Below, one piece after another: positions 8,211-32,000 of a stretch of 32,000 nucleotides of DNA. Below the pieces are notes generated by a model. That model was not told where the DNA came from. It searched no databases and saw only the letters and a list, made by a program, of their open reading frames with translations. Positions within the stretch are counted from its first letter, which is position 1; each line of letters opens with the position of its first letter. Source of the stretch: Marinobacterium iners (GTDB taxonomy: Bacteria > Pseudomonadota > Gammaproteobacteria > Pseudomonadales > Balneatricaceae); NCBI RefSeq assembly GCF_017310015.1, contig NZ_CP022297.1, positions 806,774-838,773 of the forward strand, written 5' to 3'. Made by a program: the position numbers and the translations under genes.

Positions 8211-8517
8211 GAAGCGTGCGTCCTGCGTGTAGCGTATATATGACAGACAACTATAGCCGCTTGGGCAGAGAGGGGGTAGGGGTGGTGCCATCCTTGGCAC
8301 CGTAATCAGTGCAGTCTTGTCCTCAGCCAGGTGTTGGCAGCAAAGCGACCTGCATTGTCACGCTGGCGCTTTGTGCCGGTGGTGAATGTCATAAGCGGCC
8401 ACCAATGCTTATGCCCGTCTTGTGACACTAGTCAGTCAGATATTAACCAGCTCGGTGTATTTGAACGCTTCCTGAAGCGGTTGCATCTGTAGTGGCCTGA
8501 TCGTCTTGCGCGTAGGG

Positions 8518-12951: not shown

Positions 12952-14523
12952 TCACAGGGTATACTTTGCGGACTGAAGTCCTGAATGTCCTATGTCCTGC
13001 TGTTTTACCTCCTCATGCCAGGACTTAGGACTTGCAGGACTTTGATCCGGTAACTTTACCTTGATACACCAGTGGACAGCCCCGCCTATCTTGCCCATTG
13101 AGTCACACTCAATATCGAGCTGGCGCAGTGCAGGTGCTGATCGGCGCAGCGCATCGCCCAACCCCTTTGCAGACTTCGGCCAGGAATCGCAACGCTCAGG
13201 CCGGTACTGCTCCAGGATGCGCATGATCTCCTTCACCGGGGCGTTGATCTCTTTGCGGTGTTCCAGTGCCTCGATAATCGCGGTGCAGACGGGACTGCTG
13301 TCTATGGTGCGGGATATGCTTTCACGGCGGTTGCCTTTGAACAGATCGAGAAATAGCCTTTCGTCCTGGTGGCTGATCCGAGTGAGTGCCATCCCAAGGG
13401 CGCAATACTCGATCATCCGTGGCCGGTCGGCTGCATCAATCGAGATAGTCGGCAGCAGCGCCAGAGCAGCACTTGCCAGGTCAAACAGTCCACTCAGTAT
13501 GGCCGGAAGGTCGCGCTCGAAATCGGCCCACTGGTCAGCCGAAGCGGTGCGGCTCTTAATCACGGGACACTCAATGCAAACCGTCCGGTCGAGCAAATCC
13601 TGTGCCGTAACCAATGCGCTGATCCCATTCACCAGCCAGGGGCGTTGAACGCTGATAACACTCTCATCTGCATCCGAGTACAGCTTGCGCTTGGCGAACC
13701 CGCCCCCGGTAGACAGCACGCACATGGCATCCTGCATCGGCCCGGTTAGGTGGCTCAGGTTTTCGTATGCAACCAAGTGGTTGACGCCTGCACAAACAAA
13801 CACATCTTCGGTGGCCTTGGGTGCGCCTCGCAGATTGCAGCCGTTCGGGTCGATCAGTCGGCGCAGTGACTCGGACGCAGTGCTTTTGCCTGATCCTTGC
13901 TCACCGATAAGCTCCAGTCCGGGGAAGGGGGTATCCGGTCGCAGTGCATCGATCAGCCAAGCAATCACCAGTGGCCGGTCGGCAGCAGGGATATTACAGA
14001 TACGCCATAACGGGTCGAGCGAGCCGTTTGCAGCAGGGACTGGCAGCGGCTGCATTGCCTCACCACGCACAAACAGGACGCCATGATTCTCAACCACGCG
14101 CCAGCCGGTACTGCTCCACTCAATCGCCCGACTTTTGCCTGGTTCACATAGGTCCAGGTAGTAGCGGCCACCCTGTTTGGCAACTCTCAGGTTAACGGTG
14201 CGCTCCTCACCTTCAAACCGCGCCAGGGCAGCCAAGGTGCCTAACGCTTCAGTCAAGGACTGGGACTTAACGGACTTCTGTTCTTCCTGGTAGAAGCCAG
14301 CGGCCAGCCAGTCCTTGAAGGCGCGGGAGTCAAGGCGGCGCGTTTCCTGAGTGTCCTGATCCAGTGCGTAGCAATCCCGGTTGCAGTCATGGAACAGCAC
14401 AACCCTTGCCTTGGCGTATTCAACCAAGCGGTCAGCCTGGGAGCGGCGATCCTCATCCGGTTTCTGCTGTTCCGGCACCGGCATGGCATCGATCTCTTCC
14501 AGCACATCGAGATAATCACCCAT
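12952..14523 (-). CDS. P-loop NTPase, putative replication helicase/initiator of a P4/PICI-like island
   Basis: 523 aa. Walker A is LIGEQGSGKSTA and a Walker B-like motif is LVAYENLSH. Synteny is int-alpA-ZnF primase-ATPase. The start overlaps the upstream gene by 8 bp (14516-14523). Confidence 0.7.
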   Translation of the reverse strand: MGDYLDVLEEIDAMPVPEQQKPDEDRRSQADRLVEYAKARVVLFHDCNRDCYALDQDTQETRRLDSRAFKDWLAAGFYQEEQKSVKSQSLTEALGTLAALARFEGEERTVNLRVAKQGGRYYLDLCEPGKSRAIEWSSTGWRVVENHGVLFVRGEAMQPLPVPAANGSLDPLWRICNIPAADRPLVIAWLIDALRPDTPFPGLELIGEQGSGKSTASESLRRLIDPNGCNLRGAPKATEDVFVCAGVNHLVAYENLSHLTGPMQDAMCVLSTGGGFAKRKLYSDADESVISVQRPWLVNGISALVTAQDLLDRTVCIECPVIKSRTASADQWADFERDLPAILSGLFDLASAALALLPTISIDAADRPRMIEYCALGMALTRISHQDERLFLDLFKGNRRESISRTIDSSPVCTAIIEALEHRKEINAPVKEIMRILEQYRPERCDSWPKSAKGLGDALRRSAPALRQLDIECDSMGKIGGAVHWCIKVKLPDQSPASPKSWHEEVKQQDIGHSGLQSAKYTL

Positions 14524-14974
14524 TGCGCAGCACCTCCTTGATCTTGGCTACTCGTGCAACTGCCTGCTGATAGTCGGCTTGATCCTTATCGGACAGTGCT
14601 TGTCCGGCCTTTTGAGCGTTCTCCGTCATCAGGATCAGCAGCTTCAGGTGGGACATTGCATCCTCAAGACGGCGGCGCTTCCAGTCGGGCAGTCCGGCAT
14701 AGTGCGGACGGTCGGTGCGCGGGTACAGATCGGCCACCTCAAGGCCAATGGCGGCGCAAATGTCGCTGATCTCACAACCCGCAAAACAGTGCATCAGCAC
14801 ACGGCCATCGGTGGTGTCGAAGCGGACAGACAGACTCGGGCTTTTGTCCTGGTGTGCAGGGCAACAGGCCATGTAACGATCTTTGCCGGTGGGCTTTACC
14901 CTGTCGAGCCGTCCCAGCAGATCGGCGGCGGTCAGCGGGTGACGCTGGTGTGGTTGTTTGAGCGGTGCGGTCAT
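14516..14974 (-). CDS. CHC2-type zinc-finger primase-like protein (zinc-binding domain only)
   Basis: 152 aa. KDRYMACCPAHQDKSPSLSV...HCFAGC matches the CHC2 zinc-finger pattern of DnaG/P4-alpha-type primases. I see no TOPRIM or AEP catalytic domain in this ORF. Confidence 0.7.
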   Translation of the reverse strand: MTAPLKQPHQRHPLTAADLLGRLDRVKPTGKDRYMACCPAHQDKSPSLSVRFDTTDGRVLMHCFAGCEISDICAAIGLEVADLYPRTDRPHYAGLPDWKRRRLEDAMSHLKLLILMTENAQKAGQALSDKDQADYQQAVARVAKIKEVLRNG

Positions 14975-15857: not shown

Positions 15858-17219
15858 TCAGCCTGCCTGTTTGCCAAAGCTGGCGCTGATTACGTTGCTG
15901 CCCTCAGGCTGAGTCAGTACCGCCAGCCGTTGGCCTAGCGTCTGCCACGCGTGTTGCATCTCAGCAGCGTAGCTGTGGCGTTGGTATGTCCGCTTAACCC
16001 GGTTTTGCTCGGCATGGTTCAAGCAGCGTTCGGCCACTTCGGGCAGAATACCGGCCTCAACCATCATCGTTGCAGCGGTGCGCCTCAGATCGTGCGGTGT
16101 CCACTTGCCGCCCGGAAGCAACAGAGCCTGGCTGCTTTTGCTGCGGCCACTCATACGGTCTTGGTCTGGCTGACGCTGTCGATCCTGAAGCTGCTTGTTA
16201 ACGGTTTTGGGACATACCGGAGCGGTGCCATTTCTGTTCGGATAACACCATTGGCCTGAACCAGTGTGCTGCTGCAACGCTCTGAACTGCTGTACTGCAA
16301 AGTCAGATAGGTAAACAGTATGCGGTTTACCATTCTTGGTGCTGGGCATGTACCAAGTGTGCTGCTCAATGTTGATATGCCCCCACTCAGCAGACAGTAG
16401 CTCTCCAATTCGACAGCCGGTGGATAGAGCGATCCATACAGCCAGCTCGGTTGTTGGCATCAGCCCAGCGTCTGGCATCTGTTTTACCAGTAAGCGAACT
16501 TCCTCCTCCGACAGTACCCGGTCACGCTCCATGTTTTTGCCACCAATGTTGGCTTTGGCAATGGCAGCGGTAGGGTCAGCCTCGATAATTTCACGCACCA
16601 CAGCAAAGCGGAACATCTGCCGCATTTCGGACAGAGCTACCTTTGCCATACGGGGCGCACCCCTTGCCATGATTGAGTCTGTGATTTGGGTAACATGGCT
16701 GCGGCGAATATCCTCGGCTGCAAGCTGGCCTATCTTTGGCAGCACGTCAATCGTAAACAGGCGTAGGGTACTTTCACCTCGGTCTTTTCTGCGGATCAGA
16801 TCAACCTTCATCCAGTGTTTAAACAGATCGTTGATCGTCATGCGGCTACGGTGAAGCTGGTTCTCTCTTTCCAGACGGATGCGCTCGGCTTCCTCCCTTG
16901 CCTGCCTGTGCTGTTCCTCCGCTTCAAGGTGTTCACGCAGATTGGTAATGCCGCTCTGGTGTAGACCGGCAAGCTCTTTGGCCCTGAGTCTGGCTTGTGT
17001 CAATGTCAGGCAGCCCAACTTCTCCTCTCGGCTGTAATTGCCGATAGGCATCGTTACCCGCTTGCCCTGGCTATCGATATACCGGAAGTAGAAAATGCGC
17101 TCGCCTTTGGGGGTGATCCTCACAGTCAGGGCGCCATGACCTCTGATAACGCTCTCACTCAGCCACCGGCTTCCTGTGCCGGGTTTCGCATTGATCTGAC
17201 GGTCAGTAATTGAAGCCAT
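15858..17219 (-). CDS. int: Tyrosine recombinase, P4-type integrase (DUF4102-like N-terminal arm-binding domain)
   Basis: 453 aa. The N-terminus is LSESVIRGHGALTVRITPKGERIFYFRY. Catalytic-domain motifs are CRIGELLS, HDLRRTAATMM and LNHAEQNRVKRTYQRHSY. Confidence 0.9.
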   Translation of the reverse strand: MASITDRQINAKPGTGSRWLSESVIRGHGALTVRITPKGERIFYFRYIDSQGKRVTMPIGNYSREEKLGCLTLTQARLRAKELAGLHQSGITNLREHLEAEEQHRQAREEAERIRLERENQLHRSRMTINDLFKHWMKVDLIRRKDRGESTLRLFTIDVLPKIGQLAAEDIRRSHVTQITDSIMARGAPRMAKVALSEMRQMFRFAVVREIIEADPTAAIAKANIGGKNMERDRVLSEEEVRLLVKQMPDAGLMPTTELAVWIALSTGCRIGELLSAEWGHINIEQHTWYMPSTKNGKPHTVYLSDFAVQQFRALQQHTGSGQWCYPNRNGTAPVCPKTVNKQLQDRQRQPDQDRMSGRSKSSQALLLPGGKWTPHDLRRTAATMMVEAGILPEVAERCLNHAEQNRVKRTYQRHSYAAEMQHAWQTLGQRLAVLTQPEGSNVISASFGKQAG

Positions 17220-17498: not shown

Positions 17499-17512
17499 CA
17501 GCCTTATATTTG

Positions 17513-18757
17513 CTAACCGTTCACGACCTCCGAATTATTAGTTTCGTTCATGTTATCACTGTCATTGAGTGCATCCAGCATCTTGCTTTGGCTGGTTGTC
17601 GTGACTCCGTTTATCCACTTAGAGTAGCGGGTTAGTGTCATCTGAGTTGTCGAATGCCCCATTTGCTTACTGACCCACATTACGTTTGCGCCTGCAATCA
17701 ATGCCAGCGTGCAAAACGTGTGGCGCGTGTTGTAGGGAGGGCGGTGTCGAATCCCCAGTTTCCTCAAGGCCTTCTTGAAGAAAGTGCGTACTGCCTTGTT
17801 GGTCATGTAATGCTCACCGGTATTGGGGTTAATGAACACCTCCTTAGCCTGTAGTTCAGACCATCGCCTTTGGCGTTGAAGCGCCGCTTTGGCTCTGGCA
17901 TTAAGCTCCACATCTCGAACTTCATAGGTCTTTGTCGGCTTCAAACCACCTCCAGACCGATCCCGGGCACGTTGTACTCTGACTGTAGACTGTTGCCAGT
18001 CAACATCAGACCACATCAGGCCTGAAAGCTCTGACGATCTCAGGCCGGTCCAAAAAGCAAACTCAATCAAATTTGCTTCGCATGGGTGGGCATTTTTGTC
18101 GAGCCAACCGGTGATCATATTGAGCTCTTGTAGGGTGAATGGATCTGGTTCTGGTTTGATATGCTTCTGGTTCTTCAAATACTCCGATGGATCGCGTTCG
18201 ATCTGCATATCTTGTACTGCGAACTTGAAACATCCCCTCAGCGGAGTTAATGCGTTGTTCCGTGTTTTGGCTGAAGACCAGGGAATGCTGTTAACGACCT
18301 CGATTAAATCCGAAAACCGGATGTCGCGTATCAGCATACTCCCCAGTTCTGGCACCCAGTATTTTCGGAGGACCTTTTTGTACTCCATAATCGTAGAGTC
18401 TGCCAACATCAGACTACTCATATAGGTCTGTGCAACCTGTTCGAATGTGCTGTCAGTTTTTTTCTCCTTCTGTGCGTGTTTGCTATCAGGAAACCAGTTT
18501 GCAAATGTGAAGCTACCTAGCTCGATCTCCCTGAGAATCTCGGCACGCATCCGTGCTGCAGCTTTGATGTTTGCTTGTGTCGGCTTCATGCGGACCGTTT
18601 CCTCATACCGCTGCCCCTGGTACTGGAAGCGGACGAGGATAGATGTAGGCCTGATTTTCAGGCCTGTTTGCCGGATTGCACCCAATTTTCGTACTCCTCC
18701 AAATTGAAGTGCAGCCGGCCATCGGGCGACTTCACGTAGATTACCCCCTCTCGCCAT
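17513..18757 (-). CDS. int: Tyrosine recombinase / phage integrase (DUF3596-like arm-binding N-terminus)
   Basis: 414-aa ORF. The N-terminal domain reads IRPTSILVRFQYQGQRYEETV. Catalytic motifs are GLRSSELSGL, TRHTFCTLAL and GHSTTQMTLTRYSKW. The annotated start at 18757 would overlap the xis-like gene by 100 bp. The real start is probably nearer 18660 and may use a non-ATG codon. Confidence 0.85.
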   Translation of the reverse strand: MARGGNLREVARWPAALQFGGVRKLGAIRQTGLKIRPTSILVRFQYQGQRYEETVRMKPTQANIKAAARMRAEILREIELGSFTFANWFPDSKHAQKEKKTDSTFEQVAQTYMSSLMLADSTIMEYKKVLRKYWVPELGSMLIRDIRFSDLIEVVNSIPWSSAKTRNNALTPLRGCFKFAVQDMQIERDPSEYLKNQKHIKPEPDPFTLQELNMITGWLDKNAHPCEANLIEFAFWTGLRSSELSGLMWSDVDWQQSTVRVQRARDRSGGGLKPTKTYEVRDVELNARAKAALQRQRRWSELQAKEVFINPNTGEHYMTNKAVRTFFKKALRKLGIRHRPPYNTRHTFCTLALIAGANVMWVSKQMGHSTTQMTLTRYSKWINGVTTTSQSKMLDALNDSDNMNETNNSEVVNG

Positions 18758-21500: not shown

Positions 21501-21899
21501 GTGTACAAGCGTATTCCTACCCAAAGTGTGCCAGCAGGCGTTGGGCCAACTGCTTATGTGAGTCAGAAATGCTTCAAAATCCTGGCGATGCCCGACGCTC
21601 ATCCAGCGCAGCGACATGATCTGTCGTTTGGCTCTGTCATATTGCTCACAGGTGACCGCTGCGATGTCTGTGGTGACAGCACATCGGACGGAGGTGGATA
21701 TACCCCTCAATTTGGCGTGCTCAAAGCTGATTGGGGGTATGGATCCCGCTATGATGGAGCCCGATACGAGCTGCACTTGTGCGAAAGCTGCTTTTTCTCT
21801 GCGCTGGCGACACTGAAGCAGGAGCGCCTAGCCTGCCGCATGTTTGACGAAAACGAGGGTGATCAGGCTGCAGAGTTTGGATTGGTGGTTAAAGGCTAA
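21501..21899 (+). CDS. Small hypothetical protein with a CxxC...CxxC zinc-ribbon-like motif
   Basis: The ORF is 132 aa. A more plausible start is the Met at 21588 (MPDAHPAQ..., about 103 aa). The motif reads DRCDVCGD...WGYGSRYDGARYELHLCESCF. A competing antisense ORF (21474-21776) has no recognisable features. Confidence 0.45.
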   Translation: MYKRIPTQSVPAGVGPTAYVSQKCFKILAMPDAHPAQRHDLSFGSVILLTGDRCDVCGDSTSDGGGYTPQFGVLKADWGYGSRYDGARYELHLCESCFFSALATLKQERLACRMFDENEGDQAAEFGLVVKG

Positions 21900-22079
21900 C
21901 ACGGATAAGGAGGGGGCTTACAACCCCGTTCAGGCTCTGGAGTCTGTGTGCAGGTATAGGTTATGTCAGTCTTGGAAACGAGGGTGTTTTTCATCCTCGA
22001 TGAGATAAATTGTCGTTGGCTGGATAGTTGTGTAATCTGTAGGCGATAGGTAGCTGTTTGAAAAGGACGACACTAACTC

Positions 22080-23798
22080 ATGGACTACCAGTTATCCCAG
22101 AGCGGGCAAACAGCTCATGTTGAAGTCACGCGGCTTCCAACAGGTGATCCTCTCCCCGCACTGATTGAATTAGAGAAAGAGCTGGCAGATCAAAATCTGA
22201 GACGGATTGAGCTGTTTTTCAGTGAAGGAGCATCCCCTCCGGTAGATCGCCTGACTCATGCCGGCTATCAGGAATCTGGCTCAGAACGCTTCTTCAAGTC
22301 GGTACACTATCAACCTTCTGTTCGTTTCTCGATCACTGAAAAGTGCAATTACGCATGCTTCTTCTGCCATGAAGAAGGCATGGAGATGGGCAAAGCACGT
22401 GCTGCTGCCCAACAGGAACAGCTATTTGACGTTCTGCGGCAATTCCATGAGTTGAATTATCAGGATTTTACCTTTACCGGCGGAGAGCCTTTGCTCAACC
22501 CGAATAAGATTGTTGCCTGTCTCGATTACATGGAATCAATAGGCTACCTGCCTGACATCACGTTTGTTTCCAATGGGCTGGCTCTGACCGAAAAACTTTT
22601 GGCCCGCCTGCAAGCCTATCCTGGCAAAATGCGCTTTAACATTTCGATGCATAGCCTTGAAGAGCATGCCTACAACCAGATTGTGCAGGATATACAAAAG
22701 CCGAACGCGCCACTTCGTCACAACGAGCACCGCCGCGTAAAAGAAAATTTGCTGAAGCTGCAAGCGGCAGGTATCCCTTTCAAGCTTAACTTTGTTCTAT
22801 TAAAAGGTCTCAATACGTCAGATGAAGCCATCCAGGCTGTGTTGGATTACGCGTTACAGCTTGGCGCAACGCGGATCAAGTTTCTGGAGCTGCTGTTAAC
22901 TAAAGAGCTGAATCATCTGTATGGATACTTCTACCGGCTGGATGCACTGCGCGAGCGTCTAAGTGACCAGCTGACTCTTACAGAGCGGAGTTTCAGGCGT
23001 GATGTGTATCGCTATGCAGACACACAGTTGGAGCTTGAATTCCAGCATTGTACCTGTGCCAGAGGCTGCAACACCTGCACCGTAAATCGTGACGCTAACT
23101 TTACTGCAGAGCTGAAATACTTTCCCTGTTTCCTGCATTCGGATGAAGACTTTGATTTGAAAACTGTGGCGCTTGAAGAGGCGATCACGCAAGGCGATCA
23201 AAAAATTCAACGCATGGCACAGTACTATGGTGATGACAGTCCCATCATTGTTCGTAATCACTATCTGACTCAAGAAGAGCAGTTTTATTACTATCTGGCC
23301 TCATCCAGCGCTATAGAGCAGCTCAAAAGAAAGCTTTCACTGGAGGAAAGGCTGGAGCGCAGACGGGACTTCAACGAGATCTACCTGACGTTGGTGGGTC
23401 AGGCAGGCGACGATTTTTCCACTGTGTACAAGCTAAGCCGCAATAGTTACGACCAGCACGCACTGGAAATCGAGCAGGCTTACAGTTTTGATCCGCTCAA
23501 GCCAGGATTGGTCACGACGCATTTTTCTGGCGAAAGCCAGAAGGTCATTGACCCGGACTTGTACCTGAAACAGCTGGCAGAGCAGGGGTATGAGCAGCGT
23601 TTAAACTTGAACTGGTCCATCTTTTTTTACCGTTTGCGGCGGTCCAGTTTTGTGCGGCAATCAGAGTTATCCATCAGCCATAACCTTGAGAGTGGGCTGT
23701 TCTTTGTAAGATCTGATACTCCCTTGGATGATGAGCAATTGAAGCCAATGACAGAACCCCTAGCTTCGTATATAAGCACCAGAATGCGGCTGGCATGA
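22080..23798 (+). CDS. MoaA-like radical SAM enzyme with an N-terminal ~75-aa leader domain and a ~175-aa C-terminal extension (possibly CYTH-like), first large gene of the type III-B operon
   Basis: - Size: 572 aa.
- Radical SAM cluster: CX3CX2C motif CNYACFFC (C89-C96, nt 22344-22367).
- Collinearity with MoaA by eye: FSITEKCNYACFFC, FTFTGGEPLL, ITFVSNG, RFNISMHSLE, FKLNFVLLKGLN and IKFLELL.
- Second Cys cluster: CNTCTVNRDANFTAELKYFPC, at the position of the MoaA auxiliary cluster. Confidence 0.85.
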   Translation: MDYQLSQSGQTAHVEVTRLPTGDPLPALIELEKELADQNLRRIELFFSEGASPPVDRLTHAGYQESGSERFFKSVHYQPSVRFSITEKCNYACFFCHEEGMEMGKARAAAQQEQLFDVLRQFHELNYQDFTFTGGEPLLNPNKIVACLDYMESIGYLPDITFVSNGLALTEKLLARLQAYPGKMRFNISMHSLEEHAYNQIVQDIQKPNAPLRHNEHRRVKENLLKLQAAGIPFKLNFVLLKGLNTSDEAIQAVLDYALQLGATRIKFLELLLTKELNHLYGYFYRLDALRERLSDQLTLTERSFRRDVYRYADTQLELEFQHCTCARGCNTCTVNRDANFTAELKYFPCFLHSDEDFDLKTVALEEAITQGDQKIQRMAQYYGDDSPIIVRNHYLTQEEQFYYYLASSSAIEQLKRKLSLEERLERRRDFNEIYLTLVGQAGDDFSTVYKLSRNSYDQHALEIEQAYSFDPLKPGLVTTHFSGESQKVIDPDLYLKQLAEQGYEQRLNLNWSIFFYRLRRSSFVRQSELSISHNLESGLFFVRSDTPLDDEQLKPMTEPLASYISTRMRLA

Positions 23799-23868
23799 AT
23801 ACCAACAAATTTGTTTGCAACACAATGATACCCGGGTCTGTTCATAATACGGAGCTGATGGTAACGAG

Positions 23869-25191
23869 ATGAAGGGGCAGGTTATGCCAACGACAATGAA
23901 CGTCGCTAATTCAAATGGACCGGTCGAAAGTGACCATTGGCTGATCTGTGTCGCGGGATCATCTCCGGCCGTTGTGACCGAAACACTCTATTGCTTGAAA
24001 GACCGTGAAAATTTCCCGAATAAGGTCGTGATATTCACAACCCTACATGGTAAGGGCCAGATCGAAAAACAAGGCTTGAAACAGCAAGTTTCGAATCTGT
24101 GTCGGGACTATAACCTGCCGGTTATCAGTGGCGCTAAGATTGAGGTGCGTATTGTAACGAATTCAGCGGGCGTTGAGCTCGAGGATATACGGACTTCTGA
24201 GCATCAAGAAGCAATGGCTGATTTTTTGACACGACAGATTCGTGAAATAACCCACCCACGAGGCAAAGGCAAAAAGCGCCCTGATTCAATACATGCATCC
24301 TTAGCCGGTGGGCGAAAGAGTATGTCGTTTTATATGGGCAATATCTTCTCATTCTTCGCGAGTGCGAATGATGAGCTCAGTCATGTTCTGGTGGAACCGG
24401 GCTATGAGGTCCCAGGTTTTTGGTATCCGAAACCAGAGCCTTTTAATATCACAGTAAAAAGCTATGCAACCGGAGATGTCACCGGTGTGCTGGATGCGAG
24501 CAAAGCAGAAATTGAGTTGTCCACAATTCCGTTTGTGCAGCTCAGCAATGCATTAGTGAGTACAGATTCGGATGCTTTTCATAATCTGAGCTATCAACAG
24601 TTGGTGGATATTTATCAGGTTACCCTAGATCCAAGTCGGATCAAACTGACATTTAATATTAAAAATCTATCCGTTGACCTCAATGGCCGTGTATTGCCAA
24701 TCCGGAATTTTGATAGTTATCTGTTGTATTACCTAGTCGCACGAGATAGCCATGAAAACTCATTCTCATATCAAAAAGAAGTTTTTGGTAATAAAGAGCA
24801 TGCCTTGACGCAGGCACTATGGCAGCTAATGGGTGAAGTTACGGGTATAAGGGATTTCGAAAGCCTGATAGGTAACAGCTGGGAGGCGCCTGCAGAGTAT
24901 GTCGAAAAGTATATTGCTAGGCTAAAACAAGAAAATCCAGACCTTATTCCTCTTCATCAGAGCCCCAAGCTCTTTAGTTCCCTCTCCAAAGACGGAGTCA
25001 TCAGCGAGAAATCGATTGAGCGGATGATGACCGATATCCGCAAGGCATTAGAGCAGACTGAGGGCCGTCCAACCGTGAATGTATGTAAAGTGGCCACATT
25101 GAAAGAGGATGGCGAGGAACGCAAAGCAGCCAAGGGAGTAGATGCGTACTTGGGGCTTTTATTGCCTGCCCATCAAATTCAACTTATTTAG
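23869..25191 (+). CDS. CARF-domain protein of the Cas_NE0113 type (TIGR02584/PF09623-like from memory) with an uncharacterised ~230-aa C-terminal region
   Basis: 440 aa. The family signature is present: WLICVAGSSPAVVTETLYCL and HASLAGGRKSMSFYMG. An alternative start is the Met at 23884, which has a better RBS (AAGGGG). Confidence 0.8.
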   Translation: MKGQVMPTTMNVANSNGPVESDHWLICVAGSSPAVVTETLYCLKDRENFPNKVVIFTTLHGKGQIEKQGLKQQVSNLCRDYNLPVISGAKIEVRIVTNSAGVELEDIRTSEHQEAMADFLTRQIREITHPRGKGKKRPDSIHASLAGGRKSMSFYMGNIFSFFASANDELSHVLVEPGYEVPGFWYPKPEPFNITVKSYATGDVTGVLDASKAEIELSTIPFVQLSNALVSTDSDAFHNLSYQQLVDIYQVTLDPSRIKLTFNIKNLSVDLNGRVLPIRNFDSYLLYYLVARDSHENSFSYQKEVFGNKEHALTQALWQLMGEVTGIRDFESLIGNSWEAPAEYVEKYIARLKQENPDLIPLHQSPKLFSSLSKDGVISEKSIERMMTDIRKALEQTEGRPTVNVCKVATLKEDGEERKAAKGVDAYLGLLLPAHQIQLI

Positions 25192-25291: not shown

Positions 25292-26560
25292 ATGACGCAG
25301 TTGCAAACATGGATTGACCTGCTGGATCAAACCAATGAAGAACCCAACCTGAAAGCCGAGTTTCAGGTTGTAACGCCGATGTTTATCGGTGACGGTGAAC
25401 AGAAGGCCGACAGTATACGGCCTCCAGCGATCAAGGGCGCGCTCCGCTTCTGGTGGCGGGCGCTGAATTGGAGCCGTTGTCTGCAGCAGGCAGGCAATGA
25501 AGCCAGTGCGCTTAAACAGTTGCATGATGAAGAGGCAGTACTCTTCGGGCTTGCAGCAAAACAGGATGCGCAGGGTAACCAGACTGGAGGACAAGGGGTT
25601 TTCAGCTTGAAGCTAACCCAGAAGTTGGAGCTTTTAAAAGACTGGTCCCCGGGGGCAGGGATCCAGTACCTGCTTGGCCAAGGATTGTGGAATTACAAAG
25701 AGAAGCTGTTGAGAAATGCCATCGCTGATGGTAGCTGCTTTACGATTGAATTGCGTTGGCATCCCAATCGTCTTGATATTGCCGCTTCGAAACTTGTTCT
25801 GAATGTTTCATCGATAAAAGAAACAATAGACGATGCACTGATGGCCTTTGGTCTGCTGAGTGGACTGGGCAGTCGGGCTCGAAAAGGGCTGGGAGCAGTT
25901 TCGATAACAGCGTTATCTGGCAGTCGCTGGTCTGTCCCGACGTCAATGAAATCTTACAAGGAAACCTTGCAAAAGCTTTTGCAACCCAGGTTATCCACCC
26001 GAGTACTCCCTCCATTCACTGCTGTGAGTGCCAACACCCGACTAGACTTCTCCTCTACCGGCAAGGCTGCGAATGCCCTGTTGGAAGAGATGGGCGGGCA
26101 GATGCAGATGTACCGTAGCTGGGGTCGAGAGGGAAAAGTAAACGGTAAATCTGCTGAACAAAATTTCAGAGGAGATCACGATGAAGCTTTGTTCGCGACT
26201 CAAGGCGAGCAACCAAGGAAGCAACCTGAGCGCGCGGTGTTCGGTTTGCCGCATAATTATTTTTTCAGCAGTACAAAGGGTAAAGTTGATATACATGTGA
26301 AAAAGGATGCAGCCGGTGAGCGTCGAGCCAGCCCTCTTTTTCTCCATACCCACTTATTGCCTGATGGTAGTTTTGTAGCCGTACAGCTGCTAATGCCAGC
26401 AGTCTTTTTGCCCGGCAATAATCCCATGCTTGAGTATAAGAGCAAACGTAGTTTTACACTGCCGGCTTCTGATGCTGATTGGAGTGTTATTACCCGATAT
26501 ATGGATCGCTTTAAAAACAAAGAGACTGTAATAACGACTGATCTGCAGGGAGCACAATAA
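25292..26560 (+). CDS. cmr1: Type III-B RAMP protein Cmr1
   Basis: 422 aa. FQVVTPMFIGDGEQKADSIRPPAIKGALRFWWRAL is the Cmr1 N-terminal signature. A G-rich loop GLGSRARKGLGAVSI is present, and a second RAMP-like half contains VFGLPHNY. Confidence 0.85.
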   Translation: MTQLQTWIDLLDQTNEEPNLKAEFQVVTPMFIGDGEQKADSIRPPAIKGALRFWWRALNWSRCLQQAGNEASALKQLHDEEAVLFGLAAKQDAQGNQTGGQGVFSLKLTQKLELLKDWSPGAGIQYLLGQGLWNYKEKLLRNAIADGSCFTIELRWHPNRLDIAASKLVLNVSSIKETIDDALMAFGLLSGLGSRARKGLGAVSITALSGSRWSVPTSMKSYKETLQKLLQPRLSTRVLPPFTAVSANTRLDFSSTGKAANALLEEMGGQMQMYRSWGREGKVNGKSAEQNFRGDHDEALFATQGEQPRKQPERAVFGLPHNYFFSSTKGKVDIHVKKDAAGERRASPLFLHTHLLPDGSFVAVQLLMPAVFLPGNNPMLEYKSKRSFTLPASDADWSVITRYMDRFKNKETVITTDLQGAQ

Positions 26561-26562
26561 CC

Positions 26563-28584
26563 GTGAATGAACTGAAAGCCTATTTCCACCTTACCCTGGG
26601 CCCGGTTCAGGGTTTTGTTGCACAGGCACGTCGTACGCGGGACTTCTGGGCGGGGTCTTTCCTGCTGTCCTGGCTCTCCAGCGTGGCGATGGCATCGGCT
26701 CAAAAGCAGGGTGGTGTGATCAATTTTCCGATTCCTGATGACCACTTCATGGCTGCGTTGAAAGGTGAAGCTAAAAACAATCCGCCCCAGCAGGGCAGCG
26801 TGCCCAACCGGTTTAAAACCCTTGAGGTCCAAGTCGATCAGCACTTTGACCCTCAACGGGTTGTCACTGATATGCAAGCGGCTTGGAGGGCACTTTGTGA
26901 GCACATCTGGCAGCGTGATATGGTGCCGACGCTTGGCAGCGATTCAAAGCAGGAGCAGATAACCAAACAGATCTGGCATCGTCAGTTGCACCACTACTGG
27001 GAGATCAACTGGTGTCTGGCTGATGAGGCTCATGTTAGCAATATGTTGGATCGCAGAAAAAACTGGCGCTCACATACATTACCGCCTGAGCCTGGGGTTA
27101 AGTGTATGATGATGGAAGGGTTTCAGGAGCTTTCCGGGCTTGAATACCCGGATCAGAAAAAGCTCGACAATTTCTGGCAGCGGATACGTCGTTCAGTTAA
27201 GTCTGGAACGAGCGACCTGCGCCCGGGTGAGTGTCTGAGTGCCCTTGGTTTTGTGAAACGCCGATTTGTGCGCCACTTTAAGGACTTTCAGGGTACCTTG
27301 CCATCCGGCCAAGCCATTTCGGGCTGGCCGCTGCCAGCTCAGGTGCCATCGGTGGCGCATATTGCCGCCGCTCCCTGGTATGCAGCGGTGCTTGAAAACG
27401 CTCAGTTAGACAAAGATGTCGATCAAGCACTGAACCGTTTTTATGATGTGGCCGAGCAGTTGGTCGATTTCAGTGAAACCGCCAACCCCATTCAGCGTGT
27501 GGACTCAGCCATAAAGAGGACGGGCTATCACAAGGAGTGGGCAGGTCTTGATGGCAATGTATTTCACGTCAGTCAATTAGAGAACAGCAAACTTTTTGAT
27601 GACGATCCTGGCACTCAACGTAAGGCAAAGTCGATGCTGAGCGCGCTGAATGAGCTGCGCCAGAGCACAGGTCTGCCAGAGGCAAGTAGCTTCTATGCAG
27701 TGCTCATTATGGATGGCGACAGTCTGGGCAGTCAGATGAGTGACCCTGACAAGCAGGAGGCTATCTCCAAGGGGCTTAACAACTTCACGACCGGTGTACC
27801 ATCCATTGTGCAGGATCAGGATGGCTTTCTGGTCTATGCCGGTGGTGATGATGTGTTGGCGCTGGTGTGCCTCGATAAAGCAGTAGAGCTGGCCTTGCAG
27901 TTGCGTAATTTCTACGCAGAGTGTTTTGCACAACAGAACAAGAATCTGAGCACTGACAAGCAGATCACTACCAGCCTGTCGGGGGCGATTGAGTTCTGCC
28001 ATATGAAGACGCCGCTGACTTTTGTACTCGGTGACTCTCATAGCTTGCTGGATGATATCGCCAAGGATAGAACCGGACGTGATGCGCTGGCGGTTCGCGT
28101 CTGGAAACCCGGGGGCCTCCACCTTGAATGGTCACAACCTTGGCAATATTTGATAGATCAGGCGCAGCAGACCGGTAATCTGCTGTCTGATGTAGTCAAA
28201 ATGTTTTCCGAGCGTGAGCAGAACAGCCCGTTCACCAATAAGTTCATTTTCAAGGCTGAGGAGATGTTGCAGCGTTTGCCGCAGCAGCTGTTGAAGGCAG
28301 AGCAGGATGAGGAGCTGCTGGCAAAAATGCTGCAGGCCGAACTGGTTCACTCAGGGCTTGATCTCAACCAGAATAGCCGTAATAAACAGCAGATTTTGGA
28401 TGAGCTGTTGCAGCCTCTGATCGCACTAGCTACCCCTCATGTGCGTAAAACGGATGATCAGGGGCGCTTTAAAGAGCTGAAACCACAACACCGTTTTGAC
28501 GCAGATGCACTCAAGCTGGTGCGTTTCTTGACCCAGGAGTCAATTTGTCAGCCTATGCAAGAAAACAAGGAGGTGCACGCATGA
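26563..28584 (+). CDS. cas10: Cas10/Cmr2, HD-less form with an intact GGDD cyclase motif
   Basis: 673 aa with a GTG start 3 bp after the cmr1 stop. The N-terminus LTLGPVQGFVAQARRTRDFWAGSFLLSWL corresponds to the post-HD region of Cmr2 proteins. The palm 1 metal site is IMDGDSLG (27709-27720). GGDD lies at residues 427-430 (27841-27852). Confidence 0.9.
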   Translation: MNELKAYFHLTLGPVQGFVAQARRTRDFWAGSFLLSWLSSVAMASAQKQGGVINFPIPDDHFMAALKGEAKNNPPQQGSVPNRFKTLEVQVDQHFDPQRVVTDMQAAWRALCEHIWQRDMVPTLGSDSKQEQITKQIWHRQLHHYWEINWCLADEAHVSNMLDRRKNWRSHTLPPEPGVKCMMMEGFQELSGLEYPDQKKLDNFWQRIRRSVKSGTSDLRPGECLSALGFVKRRFVRHFKDFQGTLPSGQAISGWPLPAQVPSVAHIAAAPWYAAVLENAQLDKDVDQALNRFYDVAEQLVDFSETANPIQRVDSAIKRTGYHKEWAGLDGNVFHVSQLENSKLFDDDPGTQRKAKSMLSALNELRQSTGLPEASSFYAVLIMDGDSLGSQMSDPDKQEAISKGLNNFTTGVPSIVQDQDGFLVYAGGDDVLALVCLDKAVELALQLRNFYAECFAQQNKNLSTDKQITTSLSGAIEFCHMKTPLTFVLGDSHSLLDDIAKDRTGRDALAVRVWKPGGLHLEWSQPWQYLIDQAQQTGNLLSDVVKMFSEREQNSPFTNKFIFKAEEMLQRLPQQLLKAEQDEELLAKMLQAELVHSGLDLNQNSRNKQQILDELLQPLIALATPHVRKTDDQGRFKELKPQHRFDADALKLVRFLTQESICQPMQENKEVHA

Positions 28585-29759
28585 CACTGCGTTGGTCATT
28601 GCAACCTGTTGATAGCTGGTTCTTCCGTGAGGCCCGCTCCCATGATGCGGTTGGTGTAGGGCAGTTGAATTCGATATTTCCGCCCCCTGCCACCACCCTT
28701 GCCGGTGCTATTCGCACCTCTATGGGCGATCATCTTGGCGTTGATTGGCATGAGTTTAATATCAACAATGGCAAACACCATGAGCTTTTGGGGGAAGGCA
28801 ACAACCTGGGCTTACTGAATATTGCAGCGATACAGGTCGTTGTTGATGGGGAGCCTGTCTATCCGGCCCCTCAGGATCTTCTCAAAGGCGCAGATCAAAA
28901 TGATCCGCTGTACCGACTTAAAATTGGTGCTCCGGTGCGCTGTGACCTCGGTTATGTCGCCATGCCTGAGATGGATGCCCCAGCTGGCAGTAAACCACTC
29001 GAAAACCACTGGATTACGGCCAAGGGGTTGCAGCAGTGGCTGACGGGTGGACTGCCGGATAAATCTGAGCTAATCGCGCAAAGTGAGTTGATTACCAGTG
29101 AGGCGCGTCTCGGTATCGGCCGAATCAATAAACTAGGGGTTGTTGATAAAGACAATGGGCTGCTTTACCAGACCCGACATTTACGTCCGACCGGTGAAAA
29201 ACAGTTCAGCATTGATGTGTACCTGCAGGGGATCAGTGACGATCTGGCCCAGCAGTTACCAGAGTCAACCAGCCTGCGTTTGGGTGGGGAAGGGCGCGAA
29301 GCCGCTGTCGCCATTACAAGTGCCGATTTGCCTGCAGTCAAGCTGCCGGATATGCCAACCTGTAAAAAGGCCCGTGGAGTTGTGCTGTATCTGACAAGTC
29401 CCGCCAACCTCAATAGCGACGCGGCGAATGCTGCCTGGTGTCTGCCTGGTTTTACCCCGGTTAAAAATGAGCGCGGTGAGATAACACACTGGATCGGTGA
29501 ACTGGCCGGTGTTGCACTGAAACTGGTTAGCTGTGTGCTGCCAAGGCCGGAACGTTTGGGTGGCTGGGATCAAAAACTGCGTAAACCCAAACCCCTGATC
29601 TCGCTGGCTGCCGCTGGCAGTCTCTACTACTGCGAGTTGCAGCACCCTGACCTGCAGCCACTGACGCCCGAGTTGCTGCTAACGCTGCAGCAACAACCGA
29701 TCGGCACTGATACCAGTTTGGGCTATGGCCGTCTGTTGGCCGGCCTCTGGTTGAACTGA
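28581..29759 (+). CDS. cmr3: Type III-B Cmr3
   Basis: I prefer the ATG at 28581, which forms an ATGA overlap with the cas10 stop and has an AAGGAGG RBS at 28567-28573. MTLRWSLQPVDSWFFREARSHD...FPPPATTLAGAIRTSMG is the Cmr3 signature. Confidence 0.85.
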   Translation: MTLRWSLQPVDSWFFREARSHDAVGVGQLNSIFPPPATTLAGAIRTSMGDHLGVDWHEFNINNGKHHELLGEGNNLGLLNIAAIQVVVDGEPVYPAPQDLLKGADQNDPLYRLKIGAPVRCDLGYVAMPEMDAPAGSKPLENHWITAKGLQQWLTGGLPDKSELIAQSELITSEARLGIGRINKLGVVDKDNGLLYQTRHLRPTGEKQFSIDVYLQGISDDLAQQLPESTSLRLGGEGREAAVAITSADLPAVKLPDMPTCKKARGVVLYLTSPANLNSDAANAAWCLPGFTPVKNERGEITHWIGELAGVALKLVSCVLPRPERLGGWDQKLRKPKPLISLAAAGSLYYCELQHPDLQPLTPELLLTLQQQPIGTDTSLGYGRLLAGLWLN

Positions 29760-29804: not shown

Positions 29805-30716
29805 ATGACCGCGATTGCCCATCAGATTGTTGGTTTGACCTGCGAAACCCCCATGCATGCCGGTGGCGGCAGCAAGGAAGAGGTGATCGACCTGCCGATT
29901 CAGAAAGAAGCACATACTAACTGGCCCTGCGTTTATGGCTCATCGATGAAGGGGGCGCTGCGTGCACGCGCAGAAACGCAGGTGAAGATGGATGCTTCAT
30001 TGATCGCACAAGCGTTCGGCCCTGATACCCTCAACGCCAGCGAACACGCCGGTGCATTGCTGGTCAGTGATGCCCGTTTGCTGTTGTTGCCAGTGCGTTC
30101 GTTGACCAGCCATTTCAAACTGGTGACGTGCCCGGCCTTACTGGCCCGCCTGCTGGCTGATCTGGCACGCACGGGCAACGCACAAATGTTTAAGGTACCT
30201 GCTGTGGCGGCCGATCGGGCGATCAGTCCTGATTGCCAGGGGAGAGATGAGATCTACCTGGAAGAATTTAGCTTCGCGCTATCTGACTGGGCTGATGCAG
30301 ATGGTTGGATTGAACTGTTGCTGAATCTGATTGCCGCCGTGCCAGGTGTGAGCCGTGGCGATCAGAAAGCCGAGTTACAAAAACAGCTGGTAGTGATCGA
30401 CAACGACAGCTTTCGACACCTAAGTCAGGCCGCCCTGCCGGTGCTGCCGCATATCGCCATCAATAGTGAGACCAAAACCGTGCGTAACGGCGCACTTTGG
30501 TATGAAGAAAATCTGCCGGCTGAAACCCTGCTGTACACGGTGCTTGGCTGCCAGCCTTCGCGCAAAAAAGGTGCTAACACCAGCGCCGCTGAGCTCTTGA
30601 AAGCGGTAACAGGACAGCTGTTCGGTCAGCCCTACATTCAGATTGGCGGTAACGAAACCACCGGCATGGGCTGGTGCCGTGTTGCACTGCCACAGCTGGC
30701 ACAAGGAGGTGAGTAA
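29805..30716 (+). CDS. cmr4: Type III-B Cmr4 (Cas7-like backbone, target-RNA cleaving subunit)
   Basis: 303 aa. LTCETPMHAGGGSKEEVIDLPIQKEAHTNWPCVYGSSMKGALRA is the Cmr4 signature. The conserved Asp (D29, nt 29889-29891) is present. Confidence 0.9.
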   Translation: MTAIAHQIVGLTCETPMHAGGGSKEEVIDLPIQKEAHTNWPCVYGSSMKGALRARAETQVKMDASLIAQAFGPDTLNASEHAGALLVSDARLLLLPVRSLTSHFKLVTCPALLARLLADLARTGNAQMFKVPAVAADRAISPDCQGRDEIYLEEFSFALSDWADADGWIELLLNLIAAVPGVSRGDQKAELQKQLVVIDNDSFRHLSQAALPVLPHIAINSETKTVRNGALWYEENLPAETLLYTVLGCQPSRKKGANTSAAELLKAVTGQLFGQPYIQIGGNETTGMGWCRVALPQLAQGGE

Positions 30717-31210
30717 TGGCCAAGTATAAGAAAAATATTAAACAGCCTGCACCTGTTGTTGTATCGACTGCGAGTATTTCATCGGATCAAAGGCCTTTAC
30801 CCCAACTGCTTGAGCAGCACCGAGCCGAATTTGCGCTCAAACAGATTCAGGCCGCTGTAAATCGTCCGGAAGAGGGCAAATACAAACACAGTCAGGTGAA
30901 AAGTTTTTGTCGTCGTTTTCCCGGTATGGTGCAGAGCAACGGCTTTGGACAGGCAGTCGCGTTTTTCTACTCAAAGCGTAATGACTACCCTGCGTATGGC
31001 GTGATCTATCAACTGGTTGAAGACTGGCTGTGCCAGGACAGCAAGGTTTACGCTGCCTTTGCTGAAGCCCAGGCACCACGGCTGTTGAAAGCGATTACCG
31101 AAAGCGACCAGCACGCCTATCGCTTGGCCACCGCTGAAACGCAGGCATTGATGATCTGGGTGAAGAAGTTTGCCGAGGGATTGATCCTGAAAGATGAGGA
31201 GGCCTACTGA
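30716..31210 (+). CDS. cmr5: Type III-B small subunit Cmr5 (Cas11)
   Basis: 164 aa. The start overlaps the cmr4 TAA by 1 nt and has an AAGGAGG RBS at 30703-30709. FCRRFPGMVQSNGFGQAVAFFYSK matches the Cmr5 helical-core pattern. Confidence 0.8.
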   Translation: MAKYKKNIKQPAPVVVSTASISSDQRPLPQLLEQHRAEFALKQIQAAVNRPEEGKYKHSQVKSFCRRFPGMVQSNGFGQAVAFFYSKRNDYPAYGVIYQLVEDWLCQDSKVYAAFAEAQAPRLLKAITESDQHAYRLATAETQALMIWVKKFAEGLILKDEEAY

Positions 31211-32000
31211 TGCTACCCCTCTATAATTGGCAGACGCATGCGATTCCTTCGGGTGAGGATGCTCAGCGCCAGATTCAGCATAGGGGCTGTCATCCCGGCC
31301 TCTGGTTTGAGCGGTTTTTTAATCAGTATGATGATGAATTCGCGATTAGGGATACGGCAAAAAGCAGTTTCATTAAGGGATTAGCTGGTGGCTGTGGCAA
31401 TGCTCAGGCCTTGCAGCAAGCGTACCTGCGGCAGTCCGCGCTGGTGAAGGCGTGCAGTGGGGTAACAATTACCCTGCAGGCAGACTGGCATTTTGCCACC
31501 GGGCTGGGTAACCCGCATCCGGTGGAGAATGGATTTCTACTTCACCCAACACTGGCCGCGCCTTATTTGCCTGGCAGCAGTGTCAAGGGACTAGTACGCA
31601 GCTGGCTGGAGCAGAATCTCGGTGACAAGGCAGGCATGCTGTTTCACTGTCTGTTTGGCAGCGAAGATAAGGACCCCACTAAATGTCAGCAGGATTTTCA
31701 GGCTGGTGATGTGATTTTTTTTGATGCACTACCGGTACTGCCGGCCACGCTGCTCTTAGATACTATGACCCCGCACATGGGAGGTTGGTACGAAAAGGGC
31801 GGTACAGAGGATGTATCCATGGCTGCCAACCAGCCTGCCGACTGGCATGATCCCGTACCTGTGCCCTTTTTGGCGGCCAAAGAGCTGGTGCTGATGTTCA
31901 GTTTTGCACCTAGGAAAAGGGATGCTGATTCTGACCAGTTGATGCGACTTGTCGGCAAGGCGTTGCAGGATGCTTTGTTCCATGCTGGAGCCGGAGCCAA
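31210..32000 (+). CDS. cmr6: Type III-B RAMP protein Cmr6 (3'-truncated by the window edge)
   Basis: Hand-translated frame 1 from the ATG at 31210, which overlaps the cmr5 TGA. The sequence reads MLPLYNWQTH...HFATGLGNPHPVENGFLLHPTLAAPYLPGSSVKGLVRSWLEQ...DVIFFDALP...TPHMGGWY...HAGAGA. There is no stop before 32000, and the gene is absent from the ORF track for that reason. Confidence 0.85.
   Translation, partial: MLPLYNWQTHAIPSGEDAQRQIQHRGCHPGLWFERFFNQYDDEFAIRDTAKSSFIKGLAGGCGNAQALQQAYLRQSALVKACSGVTITLQADWHFATGLGNPHPVENGFLLHPTLAAPYLPGSSVKGLVRSWLEQNLGDKAGMLFHCLFGSEDKDPTKCQQDFQAGDVIFFDALPVLPATLLLDTMTPHMGGWYEKGGTEDVSMAANQPADWHDPVPVPFLAAKELVLMFSFAPRKRDADSDQLMRLVGKALQDALFHAGAGA

Follow-up and report, generated by a model that had tools for sequence, protein, structure and literature searches.

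Upstream of the type III-B CRISPR-Cas locus of Marinobacterium iners lies a gene for an enzyme of the radical S-adenosylmethionine (SAM) type, hereafter the rSAM gene, which we consider, at a probability of roughly 0.55, to be a dedicated type III ancillary effector that acts on a nucleotide by radical SAM chemistry. The gene was analysed within a window of 32,000 nucleotides (nt) (contig NZ_CP022297.1 of assembly GCF_017310015.1, forward-strand positions 806,774 to 838,773), and coordinates given without a locus name are those of this window (Table 1). The AlphaFold2 (AF2) model of its product, built on an alignment of 82 full-length homologue sequences (alignment A1; pLDDT 88.1, pTM 0.82), shows three parts: a small N-terminal domain (N-domain), an rSAM core resembling MoaA and viperins, and a C-terminal domain (C-domain) with the barrel fold of CYTH and triphosphate tunnel metalloenzyme (TTM) proteins. 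The data below show this architecture, the linkage to type III loci, the signalling-only Cas10 proteins found there and the mobility of the gene; how the enzyme is switched on, what it acts on and makes, and what its auxiliary cluster does are inferred.

Linkage to type III CRISPR-Cas loci

Full-length homologues of the rSAM protein (555-595 amino acids, aa) occur in Vibrio, Allochromatium, Thiocapsa, Photobacterium, Psychromonas and Fusobacterium. A genome scan, Pfam and a neighbour-joining (NJ) tree of the core divide the family into three groups, and in the tree the family is monophyletic and lies outside the MoaA-like sequences. The first group, the CRISPR-linked clade, holds the window protein, other gammaproteobacterial proteins, proteins from Fusobacteriota and some forms without the N-domain. 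The second, its sister clade, combines a full GNAT N-domain with an rSAM core and a CYTH-like domain, and the third, a small one, has a nucleotidyltransferase-like N-domain.

An earlier reading of this stretch, made from sequence only (the sequence-only reading), had proposed the rSAM gene as an accessory gene of a type III-B system, and had named enrichment of its clade beside type III loci as a test. We searched the fetched loci iteratively with jackhmmer for Cas10 at a distance of at most 10 kb, and found it in 19 distinct loci of the CRISPR-linked clade, as against none of 12 sister-clade loci and none of 50 MoaA-like outgroup loci. The 19 loci span Gammaproteobacteria, Fusobacteriota and other phyla, and their modules are of III-B, III-A-like (Csm-like) and III-D-like types. 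Thus, the proposed link to type III systems holds, but it is not specific to III-B. Loci of the CRISPR-linked clade without a detected Cas10 include short or contig-edge loci, one with other cmr genes and one in which the rSAM gene is frameshifted.

The arrangement of the genes varies among these loci. In Vibrio metschnikovii, the order is rSAM, NE0113 (a CARF-domain gene), cmr1-6, as in the window, while on an Allochromatium vinosum plasmid it is cmr1-6, rSAM, NE0113, Csx16, cas1/2. In Fusobacterium polymorphum, the final gene of a Cas10-RAMP operon lies 21 nt ahead of the rSAM start, and no CARF gene is present; in Fusobacterium loci, the rSAM gene is the sole non-core gene. In a Fusobacterium-type locus whose rSAM protein has no N-domain, the rSAM stop codon overlaps the start of the gene preceding Cas10. 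The rSAM gene also adjoins type III genes in Nitrincola and related metagenomes, and lies beside a Csm system on a plasmid-like contig. Finally, in Vibrio alfacsensis it is divergent from the Cas10 operon, and Card1, Csx16 and a reverse transcriptase-Cas1 (RT-Cas1) gene are close by.

In the window itself, the rSAM gene, the CARF gene, cmr1, cas10/cmr2, cmr3, cmr4 and cmr5 are all on one strand. Coordinates and strands of the open reading frames (ORFs) agree with the sequence-only reading, which had placed the gene 70 bp before the CARF gene and in the orientation of the cmr genes. This gap, from the rSAM stop at 23798 to the CARF start at 23869, contains no terminator-like site, and the CARF gene is probably co-transcribed with the rSAM gene.

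It is to a cyclase-active Cas10 that the linkage is conserved across lineages. Five associated Cas10 proteins were inspected, and all five retain the GGDD motif and lack the HD nuclease domain; in the Cas10 of the window, a motif check places GGDD at aa 427 and likewise shows no HD domain. Homologues of Csx16, an experimentally confirmed ring nuclease specific for cyclic tetra-adenylate (cA4) (PMC12409355), occur in about nine rSAM loci, and Card1/Can2 in several. This co-occurrence of Csx16, Card1/Can2 and CARF genes points to cA4 signalling in the rSAM loci.

A mobile gene and its Cas10-free relatives

When the window is compared with Nitrincola tapanii and related metagenome contigs, a single segment is common and the flanks are unrelated. 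This cassette consists of the rSAM gene with 95 bp on its upstream side and about 250 bp on its downstream side, and is 96-97% identical at the nucleotide level to the Nitrincola loci (blastn). The Nitrincola rSAM protein, 98-99% identical to that of the window, is followed by an unrelated type III module whose Cas10 has 535 aa. A Nitrincola-type metagenome contig (L087, 5994-6212) carries an ORF of 72 aa that is identical to the N-terminus of the window CARF protein over its first 59 residues and diverges thereafter; this ORF is a recombination scar from a swap of the downstream type III module. As one enzyme accompanies type III modules that are unrelated to each other in two genera, specific docking to the effector complex would be an unlikely means of coupling; the comparison favours a diffusible molecule as the link, or the absence of any link.

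In the sister clade, wherever this was checked, an upstream gene for a DegT/PseC-like pyridoxal phosphate (PLP) aminotransferase overlaps the rSAM gene (L027, 7944-11524; L029, 5719-14122). The set in L029 lies between genes for a Schlafen/AlbA_2-NACHT protein and a Macro-domain protein.

These observations bear on a rather unlikely alternative, namely that the rSAM protein is a stand-alone viperin-like defence enzyme, constitutive or transcriptionally induced, which hitch-hikes in defence islands without control by a Cas10 messenger. Such an enzyme would account for a cassette that travels as a self-contained 2-kb unit with its own 95 bp of upstream sequence and for the occurrence of sister-clade members outside CRISPR loci, one of them between the Schlafen-NACHT and Macro-domain genes. 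Neither a CARF nor a SAVED domain was found in the rSAM protein by Pfam, NCBIfam, PADLOC or Foldseek, and the prokaryotic viperin (pVip) models of PADLOC, which have no curated cut-off, match it at E = 1.6e-20. A hitch-hiker does not, however, readily explain why the rSAM gene directly adjoins type III genes in most loci examined, across several phyla and subtypes, why it is on the same strand in most of them (V. alfacsensis being divergent), with one stop/start overlap, or why Cas10 is found near it in one clade and in none of the sister loci. In addition, the C-domain shows conservation specific to the CRISPR-linked clade (see below), which suggests a function gained with CRISPR association. 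An anti-CRISPR role was also considered and rejected: phage-encoded homologues were sought in IMG/VR and none was found, the search returning one unrelated weak rSAM match only.

The C-terminal barrel as a candidate sensor

The C-domain (aa ~399-572) is a real folded, mainly beta domain in the AF2 model. It is predicted to form a tunnel-shaped, eight-stranded beta barrel, the fold of CYTH/TTM proteins. Foldseek places it closest to SaTTM (7nsd, E = 3e-7; 7nsf, target TM-score 0.72 over 189 columns), and further matches, all within E = 3e-7 to 4e-6, include HpAC1 (6yp4), PH1819 (2een) and AtTTM1 (7z67). No Pfam CYTH match was obtained even at E<=10, and a profile search of PDB sequences gave no match, so that the CYTH assignment of the modelled domain is structural only. 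The sequence-only reading had described a C-terminal extension of about 175 aa with beta-like segments, faintly recalling a CYTH-type fold with degenerate acidic residues; the segments it listed are predicted beta strands, Foldseek supports the fold, and the ExExK motif is indeed replaced.

While the barrel fold is shared with SaTTM, class IV adenylate cyclase and thiamine triphosphatase (ThTPase), the residues that characterize these proteins are not. Strand 1 reads R427-x-R429-x-F431-x-E433-x-Y435 in place of ExExK, K451 alone is invariant, and E433 is nearly so (81 of the 82 sequences). Some three conserved basic residues and one or two acidic ones remain, and most of the residues that bind metal and phosphate in CYTH proteins have been lost. 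Because ExExK and a Pfam CYTH match are absent and few charged residues are conserved, the C-domain is probably neither a phosphohydrolase nor a cyclase. A profile of the domain searched against 1.84e9 representative proteins retrieved 73 clusters, all of them the rSAM fusion or its fragments, and the idea that it is a sensor module shuffled onto other effectors was therefore rejected.

Comparison of the two larger clades separates what they share from what is peculiar to the CRISPR-linked one. R82, H97, E99, D129, T131, N165, S189, H191, K235, K267, E270 and four cysteines of the core are conserved in both, which makes a shared chemistry likely. Conserved in the CRISPR-linked clade only are E98, M103, R107, N336, T342 and E344 of the core and, in the C-domain, R427, R429, E433, N455, E463, Q466, Y495 and W512; at several of the latter positions the sister clade has hydrophobic or small residues. 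This pattern suggests that the barrel holds a clade-specific ligand site, and fits, without proving, a messenger sensor gained with CRISPR association. A bolder reading, of fairly low probability, is that the rSAM protein would found a new effector class as a messenger-gated 'conditional viperin': the CYTH-fold barrel may have been repurposed as a new sensor of cyclic oligoadenylate (cOA) or another Cas10 product, gating a MoaA/viperin-like core so that an antiviral nucleotide analogue is made, or nucleoside triphosphates (NTPs) and SAM are drained, in infected cells only.

The messenger could instead be the substrate. In this improbable case, the rSAM protein would process cOA, linear pppA(n) or SAM-AMP, either converting it to an active molecule or destroying it as an off-switch. 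Coupling at the level of the substrate would account for the missing CARF or SAVED domain; the SAM scaffold, which radical SAM enzymes bind, is also part of SAM-AMP, and CYTH tunnels accept adenine nucleotides and triphosphates, as in the SaTTM-ATP structure (7nsd). Yet the core is conserved in the Cas10-free sister clade, implying a common cellular substrate, loci with Csx16 already own a ring nuclease, and the metal- and phosphate-binding residues of the CYTH fold are mostly lost here.

The neighbouring NE0113 CARF protein

About half of the rSAM loci have an NE0113 CARF gene. The window CARF protein, 100% identical to one of Marinobacterium iners, matches Pfam Cas_NE0113 (E = 4e-29), the NCBIfam model (146 bits against a cut-off of 81) and PADLOC CARF5; its AF2 model (pLDDT 90.9) is matched in Foldseek by the CARF domains of Cad1, Crn1, Can2 and Csm6. 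In the C-terminal half (aa ~250-440, window 24600-25191), the model shows with good confidence a beta-hairpin/helix unit, then a helical bundle and a small sheet, and Foldseek returned CARF-domain matches only, with no fold or family for this half. The protein bears the NCBI family name 'ring nuclease Csm6', yet a HEPN R-x4-6-H motif is not evident in it.

This neighbour allows for a two-component effector, in which NE0113 senses cOA and activates or induces the rSAM protein as a sensorless output half. Marinobacterium, V. metschnikovii and many Chromatiaceae all keep the pair, the two window genes are separated by only the terminator-free 70 bp, and about 190 aa of the CARF protein remain without assignment. 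We nevertheless regard this arrangement as having little probability. No NE0113 gene was found next to the rSAM gene in loci of Fusobacterium, Photobacterium, Thiorhodospira and others (an NE0113 protein of Psychromonas sp. SA13A shares a contig with the rSAM gene of locus L017), and NE0113 is a very large family with over 3,900 matches, mostly without this rSAM gene. In Nitrincola, moreover, the adjacent CARF gene is reduced to the 72-aa scar, though another copy lies 8 kb off.

The radical SAM core

Membership of the radical SAM superfamily is evident from the CX3CX2C motif, from a Pfam Radical_SAM (PF04055) match over aa 84-249 above the gathering score (73 bits against 29.5) and from the GGE SAM-binding motif; C89, C93 and C96, as well as GGEP at 134-137, are invariant in A1. 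The best NCBIfam matches are three MoaA equivalog models, over aa 80-378, all of them below their cut-offs (TIGR02668, 117.8 against 325; NF001199, 111.4 against 231; TIGR02666, 105.5 against 284). The closest solved relative by sequence is Staphylococcus aureus MoaA (1tv7, E = 1e-10), aligned over aa 81-379 with the second cysteine cluster included. Among PDB structures, Foldseek ranks MoaA (2fb2) first for the core (E = 1e-12), followed by viperins (E = 5e-11, target TM-score up to 0.76), then SuiB and SkfB (E = 1e-9 to 5e-8) and DesII (E = 2e-7). The NCBIfam pVip models NF038283/TIGR04278 give 65.4 against 180 and 25.7 against 450.

The auxiliary motif comprises C324, C326, C330, C333 and C350, all five of which are invariant in A1. 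C330-N-T-C333, followed by 16 residues and C350, aligns with the MoaA triad, and MoaA-like outgroups carry just the equivalents of these last three. In MoaA, three cysteines ligate the auxiliary [4Fe-4S] cluster, and one Fe site is thereby left free for GTP. C326, C330, C333 and C350 are kept in both the CRISPR-linked and the sister clade, while C324 is confined to the former. As the fourth cysteine, C326, is conserved family-wide, the auxiliary cluster is probably fully ligated, which suggests that it may serve electron transfer. A fully Cys-ligated auxiliary cluster is found in BtrN-type dehydrogenases, which the rSAM cluster, if fully ligated, would resemble.

The core can also be compared with the MoaA active site, where GTP is, reportedly from the work of Hänzelmann and Schindelin in 2006, contacted by R17, K69, R71, K163, R192, R266 and R268, with N124 also among the contacts; of these roles, the title of PDB entry 2fb2 corroborates only R17, R266 and R268. 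S. aureus MoaA R17, N124, K163 and R192 align with invariant R82, N187, K235 and K267, whereas the positions of K69 and R71 are occupied in the rSAM family by D129 and T131, both invariant. R337 is partly conserved and sits in a region with a 3-residue insertion in the MoaA alignment. With R82, N187, K235 and K267 kept and K69 and R71 replaced, the site looks still suited to a phosphate-bearing ligand, yet distinct from the GTP site of MoaA. Most of what the sequence-only reading said of the core is confirmed, namely the CX3CX2C motif at C89, C93 and C96, the MoaA-like blocks collinear up to a second cluster (NCBIfam and 1tv7 alignments, aa 80-379), the CNTC-x16-C form of that cluster, to which C326 and C324 can now be added, and the lack of a MoaA Gly-Gly tail, the protein terminating in ...TRMRLA.

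Two enzyme classes with related cores offer further alternatives. A peptide- or protein-modifying maturase of the twitch/SPASM-like kind, acting on a Cas protein or a small precursor peptide, could be proposed from the SuiB and SkfB matches, the Cys-rich auxiliary motif and the A. vinosum locus, where a 61-aa ORF and a YydG-like rSAM gene adjoin. It is very improbable, as the nucleotide enzymes MoaA and viperin give the best and longest matches, R17, N124, K163 and R192, the phosphate and ribose contacts of MoaA, have invariant counterparts here, and no small ORF is kept beside the rSAM gene across loci. An ordinary MoaA (GTP 3',8-cyclase) of molybdenum cofactor synthesis, suggested by the top NCBIfam matches and by the MoaA annotation of homologues by JGI, and named by the sequence-only reading as a finding that would overturn its proposal, is effectively refuted by scores of 105-118 bits far under cut-offs of 231-325, the missing Gly-Gly tail, the extra N- and C-terminal domains, the K69 and R71 replacements, the tree position outside MoaA-like sequences and the absence of moa genes among the neighbouring window ORFs scanned.

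The N-terminal domain

What the sequence-only reading took for an N-terminal leader of about 75 aa is no leader peptide: aa 1-78 form a confidently folded (AF2 pLDDT >90), GNAT-like domain. From residue 2 onwards, it aligns with the C-terminal half of the sister-clade GNAT domain (tblastn, locus L031), which itself matches Pfam Acetyltransf_1 (E = 1e-8; 35.5 bits against 20.7). The N-domain of the rSAM protein does not qualify as a GNAT acetyltransferase, since Pfam gives no match for aa 1-80 even at E<=10 and the R/QxxGxG/A acetyl-CoA motif is absent from this domain. It is a probable degenerate GNAT remnant, and it is missing entirely from some members of the CRISPR-linked clade (for example P0090, 508 aa).

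A proposed model for activation and action

If the rSAM protein is a type III effector acting on a nucleotide, its activity could unfold as follows. Upon binding of target RNA, Cas10 would make a cyclic oligoadenylate, probably cA4, and this messenger would activate the rSAM protein, likeliest by binding in a putative pocket of the CYTH-like barrel, whose polar and aromatic residues only the CRISPR-linked clade conserves; there are hosts in which activation may come from the neighbouring CARF protein instead or additionally. Reductive cleavage of SAM would then yield a 5'-deoxyadenosyl radical that takes a ribose hydrogen from a phosphate-bearing nucleotide held by R82, K235, K267 and N187, the equivalents of MoaA R17, K163, R192 and N124. 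The auxiliary cluster, probably fully ligated through C326, would act as an electron conduit and not as a substrate anchor as in MoaA. The nucleotide may thereby be oxidised, dehydrated or cyclised into a product that would poison polymerases; or else turnover may drain NTP and SAM, and either way the infected cell or the virus would be arrested.

Several points weigh against this model or parts of it. The NJ tree was built on the rSAM core and carries no support values. Because the sister clade is not CRISPR-linked, the chemistry needs no Cas10, and the enzyme could be constitutively active. As the MoaA residues K69 and R71 are replaced by invariant D129 and T131, an NTP substrate is not assured. 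The pocket of the C-domain and its placement relative to the active site are putative, we know of no precedent for a CYTH-fold cOA sensor, and the rSAM protein has no CARF or SAVED domain of its own by the searches given above. One well-flanked locus (L020) shows cas1 alone nearby and no Cas10. Finally, many loci already hold other effectors (Card1, NE0113 CARF), and the rSAM protein need not be the main effector there.

Comparison with known systems

With MoaA, its best match in sequence and fold, the rSAM protein shares the radical SAM TIM-barrel core, the CX3CX2C and GGE motifs and a C-terminal CxxCx(n)C auxiliary motif, but it differs in the extra cysteines C326 and C324, the extra domains, a CRISPR instead of a moa context and the lack of a Gly-Gly tail. 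Viperins and pVips are antiviral radical SAM enzymes that make chain terminators (3'-deoxy-3',4'-didehydro-NTPs, ddhNTPs); the antiviral genomic context, a nucleotide-type rSAM core and the CNYxCxFC form of the motif are common to them and the rSAM protein. Unlike the rSAM protein, viperins to our knowledge have neither an auxiliary cluster nor a CYTH-like domain, and we know of no pVip embedded in a type III CRISPR operon.

Known type III effectors (Csm6/Csx1, Can1/2/Card1, NucC, Cad1, Cam1, Csx23, CalpL, CorA) resemble the rSAM protein in being encoded in or beside a cas operon with a cyclase-active Cas10, in their variable, modular presence and in their co-occurrence with ring nucleases such as Csx16. 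The rSAM protein differs from them in having no CARF or SAVED sensor and in having a radical SAM enzyme as its output. Another parallel is provided by DesI/DesII and BtrS/BtrN, pairs of a DegT-family PLP aminotransferase and an rSAM enzyme acting on nucleoside diphosphate (NDP)-sugars or aminocyclitols, which the overlapping DegT/PseC-like gene of the sister clade recalls. DesII itself is among the Foldseek matches noted above, its sequence similarity being weak (E = 0.1). The CRISPR-linked clade, in contrast, lacks an aminotransferase partner and carries a truncated GNAT domain.

Genomic context of the window

Coordinates of the rSAM gene, its domains and the surrounding genes are collected in Table 1. 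An integrative or defence island (423-18757) abuts the cmr locus. Between its integrases and the rSAM gene lies a tandem repeat with a 101-bp unit (19386-21349, about 19.6 copies, 83% match), each unit bearing the palindrome GTGTCGAAtcTTCGACAC. The array contains no intact long ORF and has no Rfam match, and it was rejected as a CRISPR array, unique spacers being absent. No CRISPR array was found in the window, and a search of the whole window against Rfam gave no matches. Just upstream of the shared cassette, at 21501-21899 (+), is a 132-aa Cys-rich ORF (CDVCGD...CESC) with no Pfam, NCBIfam or PADLOC match.

Table 1. Features of the window and of the rSAM gene product
Feature	Coordinates	Strand	Evidence or remark
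rSAM gene (CRISPR-linked rSAM with CYTH-like tail)	22080..23798	+	ORF, 572 aa, ATG start, three domains
N-domain, aa 1-78	22080..22313	+	beta-beta-alpha-beta-alpha-beta-beta; probable degenerate GNAT remnant
rSAM core, aa 80-385, MoaA/viperin-like	22317..23234	+	Pfam PF04055, E = 4e-20
CX3CX2C (C89, C93, C96), for SAM-binding [4Fe-4S] cluster	22344..22367	+	invariant, 82 sequences
Auxiliary-cluster Cys motif C324-x-C326-x3-C330-x2-C333-x16-C350	23049..23129	+	alignment A1
C-terminal CYTH/TTM-fold barrel, aa 399-572, without ExExK; candidate ligand-binding (sensor) domain	23274..23795	+	Foldseek
Mobile cassette, 2,066 bp	21985..24050	+	blastn of window against L007 and L087
NE0113/TIGR02584 CARF gene, 440 aa	23869..25191	+	Pfam, NCBIfam, PADLOC
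cmr1	25292..26560	+	RAMPs, TIGR01894
cas10/cmr2	26563..28584	+	Cmr2_N and Cas10 palm2 domains
cmr3	28545..29759	+	Cas_Cmr3, E = 3e-56
cmr4	29805..30716	+	TIGR02580, 226 bits
cmr5	30716..31210	+	Cas_Cmr5, E = 6e-29
cmr6, runs past window end	31210..32000	+	tblastn, 72% identity to V. metschnikovii Cmr6
Two tyrosine integrases	15858..17219 and 17513..18757	-	island
CHC2 zinc-finger primase-like ORF	14516..14974		island
ADP-ribosylglycohydrolase	10308..11246		island
MmeI-type restriction-modification gene	5466..8300		island
DEAD/ResIII helicase	2665..4746		island
T5orf172/MUG113 protein	1394..2668		island

Other loci of the family show further neighbours. On the A. vinosum plasmid (L002, 11792-14353), and also in Chromatium okenii (L013), extra genes lie between the family rSAM gene and NE0113: the 61-aa ORF mentioned above, a 190-aa ORF, a second rSAM gene (341 aa, whose YydG-like match is weak, at 70 bits where the cut-off is 300) and one of the EcsC family. 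This insert may be a second, peptide-directed accessory module. An EcsC gene is also found beside a Fusobacterium-type locus (L091, 6645-7256). Three tandem dynamin/MMR_HSR1-type GTPase genes lie by the type III module of V. metschnikovii (L001, 3487-8561), and the RT-Cas1 fusion of V. alfacsensis is at 17528-19617 of locus L093. Upstream of a Fusobacterium-type locus, an NrdD-like gene and its activase were considered as a second radical partner and dropped, as they score as an ordinary anaerobic ribonucleotide reductase.

Significance

Nucleases, proteases, membrane proteins, a deaminase and NADases make up most of the known type III effectors. In the openly searchable literature, including PMC6546367, PMC11229360, PMC12409355, PMC12255297 and PMC10910872, we found no description of a radical SAM type III effector. 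The one mention we found is in the Cdn1 paper, where a sentence and a gene map place 'a radical SAM enzyme', not studied further there, beside a 'ring nuclease Csm6' gene in a III-B locus of Psychrobacter lutiphocae (PMC12825302); this gene may be a member of the present family. A survey counted 133 cyclase-positive, HD-less type III loci without a known effector (PMC11229360).

If the rSAM protein is indeed a type III effector, it would bring a wholly different chemistry into CRISPR immunity, and would join viperin-type chain terminators with cyclic-oligoadenylate signalling, the two best-known nucleotide-based antiviral strategies. It would also be a candidate effector for Fusobacterium-type and other loci which have a signalling-only Cas10 and no known receiver, and its CYTH-like barrel could represent a receptor fold new to second-messenger signalling. 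The sister clade, with its GNAT, rSAM and CYTH-like domains and its sugar-type aminotransferase, points to a candidate pathway, unexplored, stand-alone and possibly defensive, that would yield a modified nucleotide or nucleotide-sugar. As the family is small and the structural model confident, the hypothesis that type III signalling drives radical SAM chemistry in these bacteria is directly testable.

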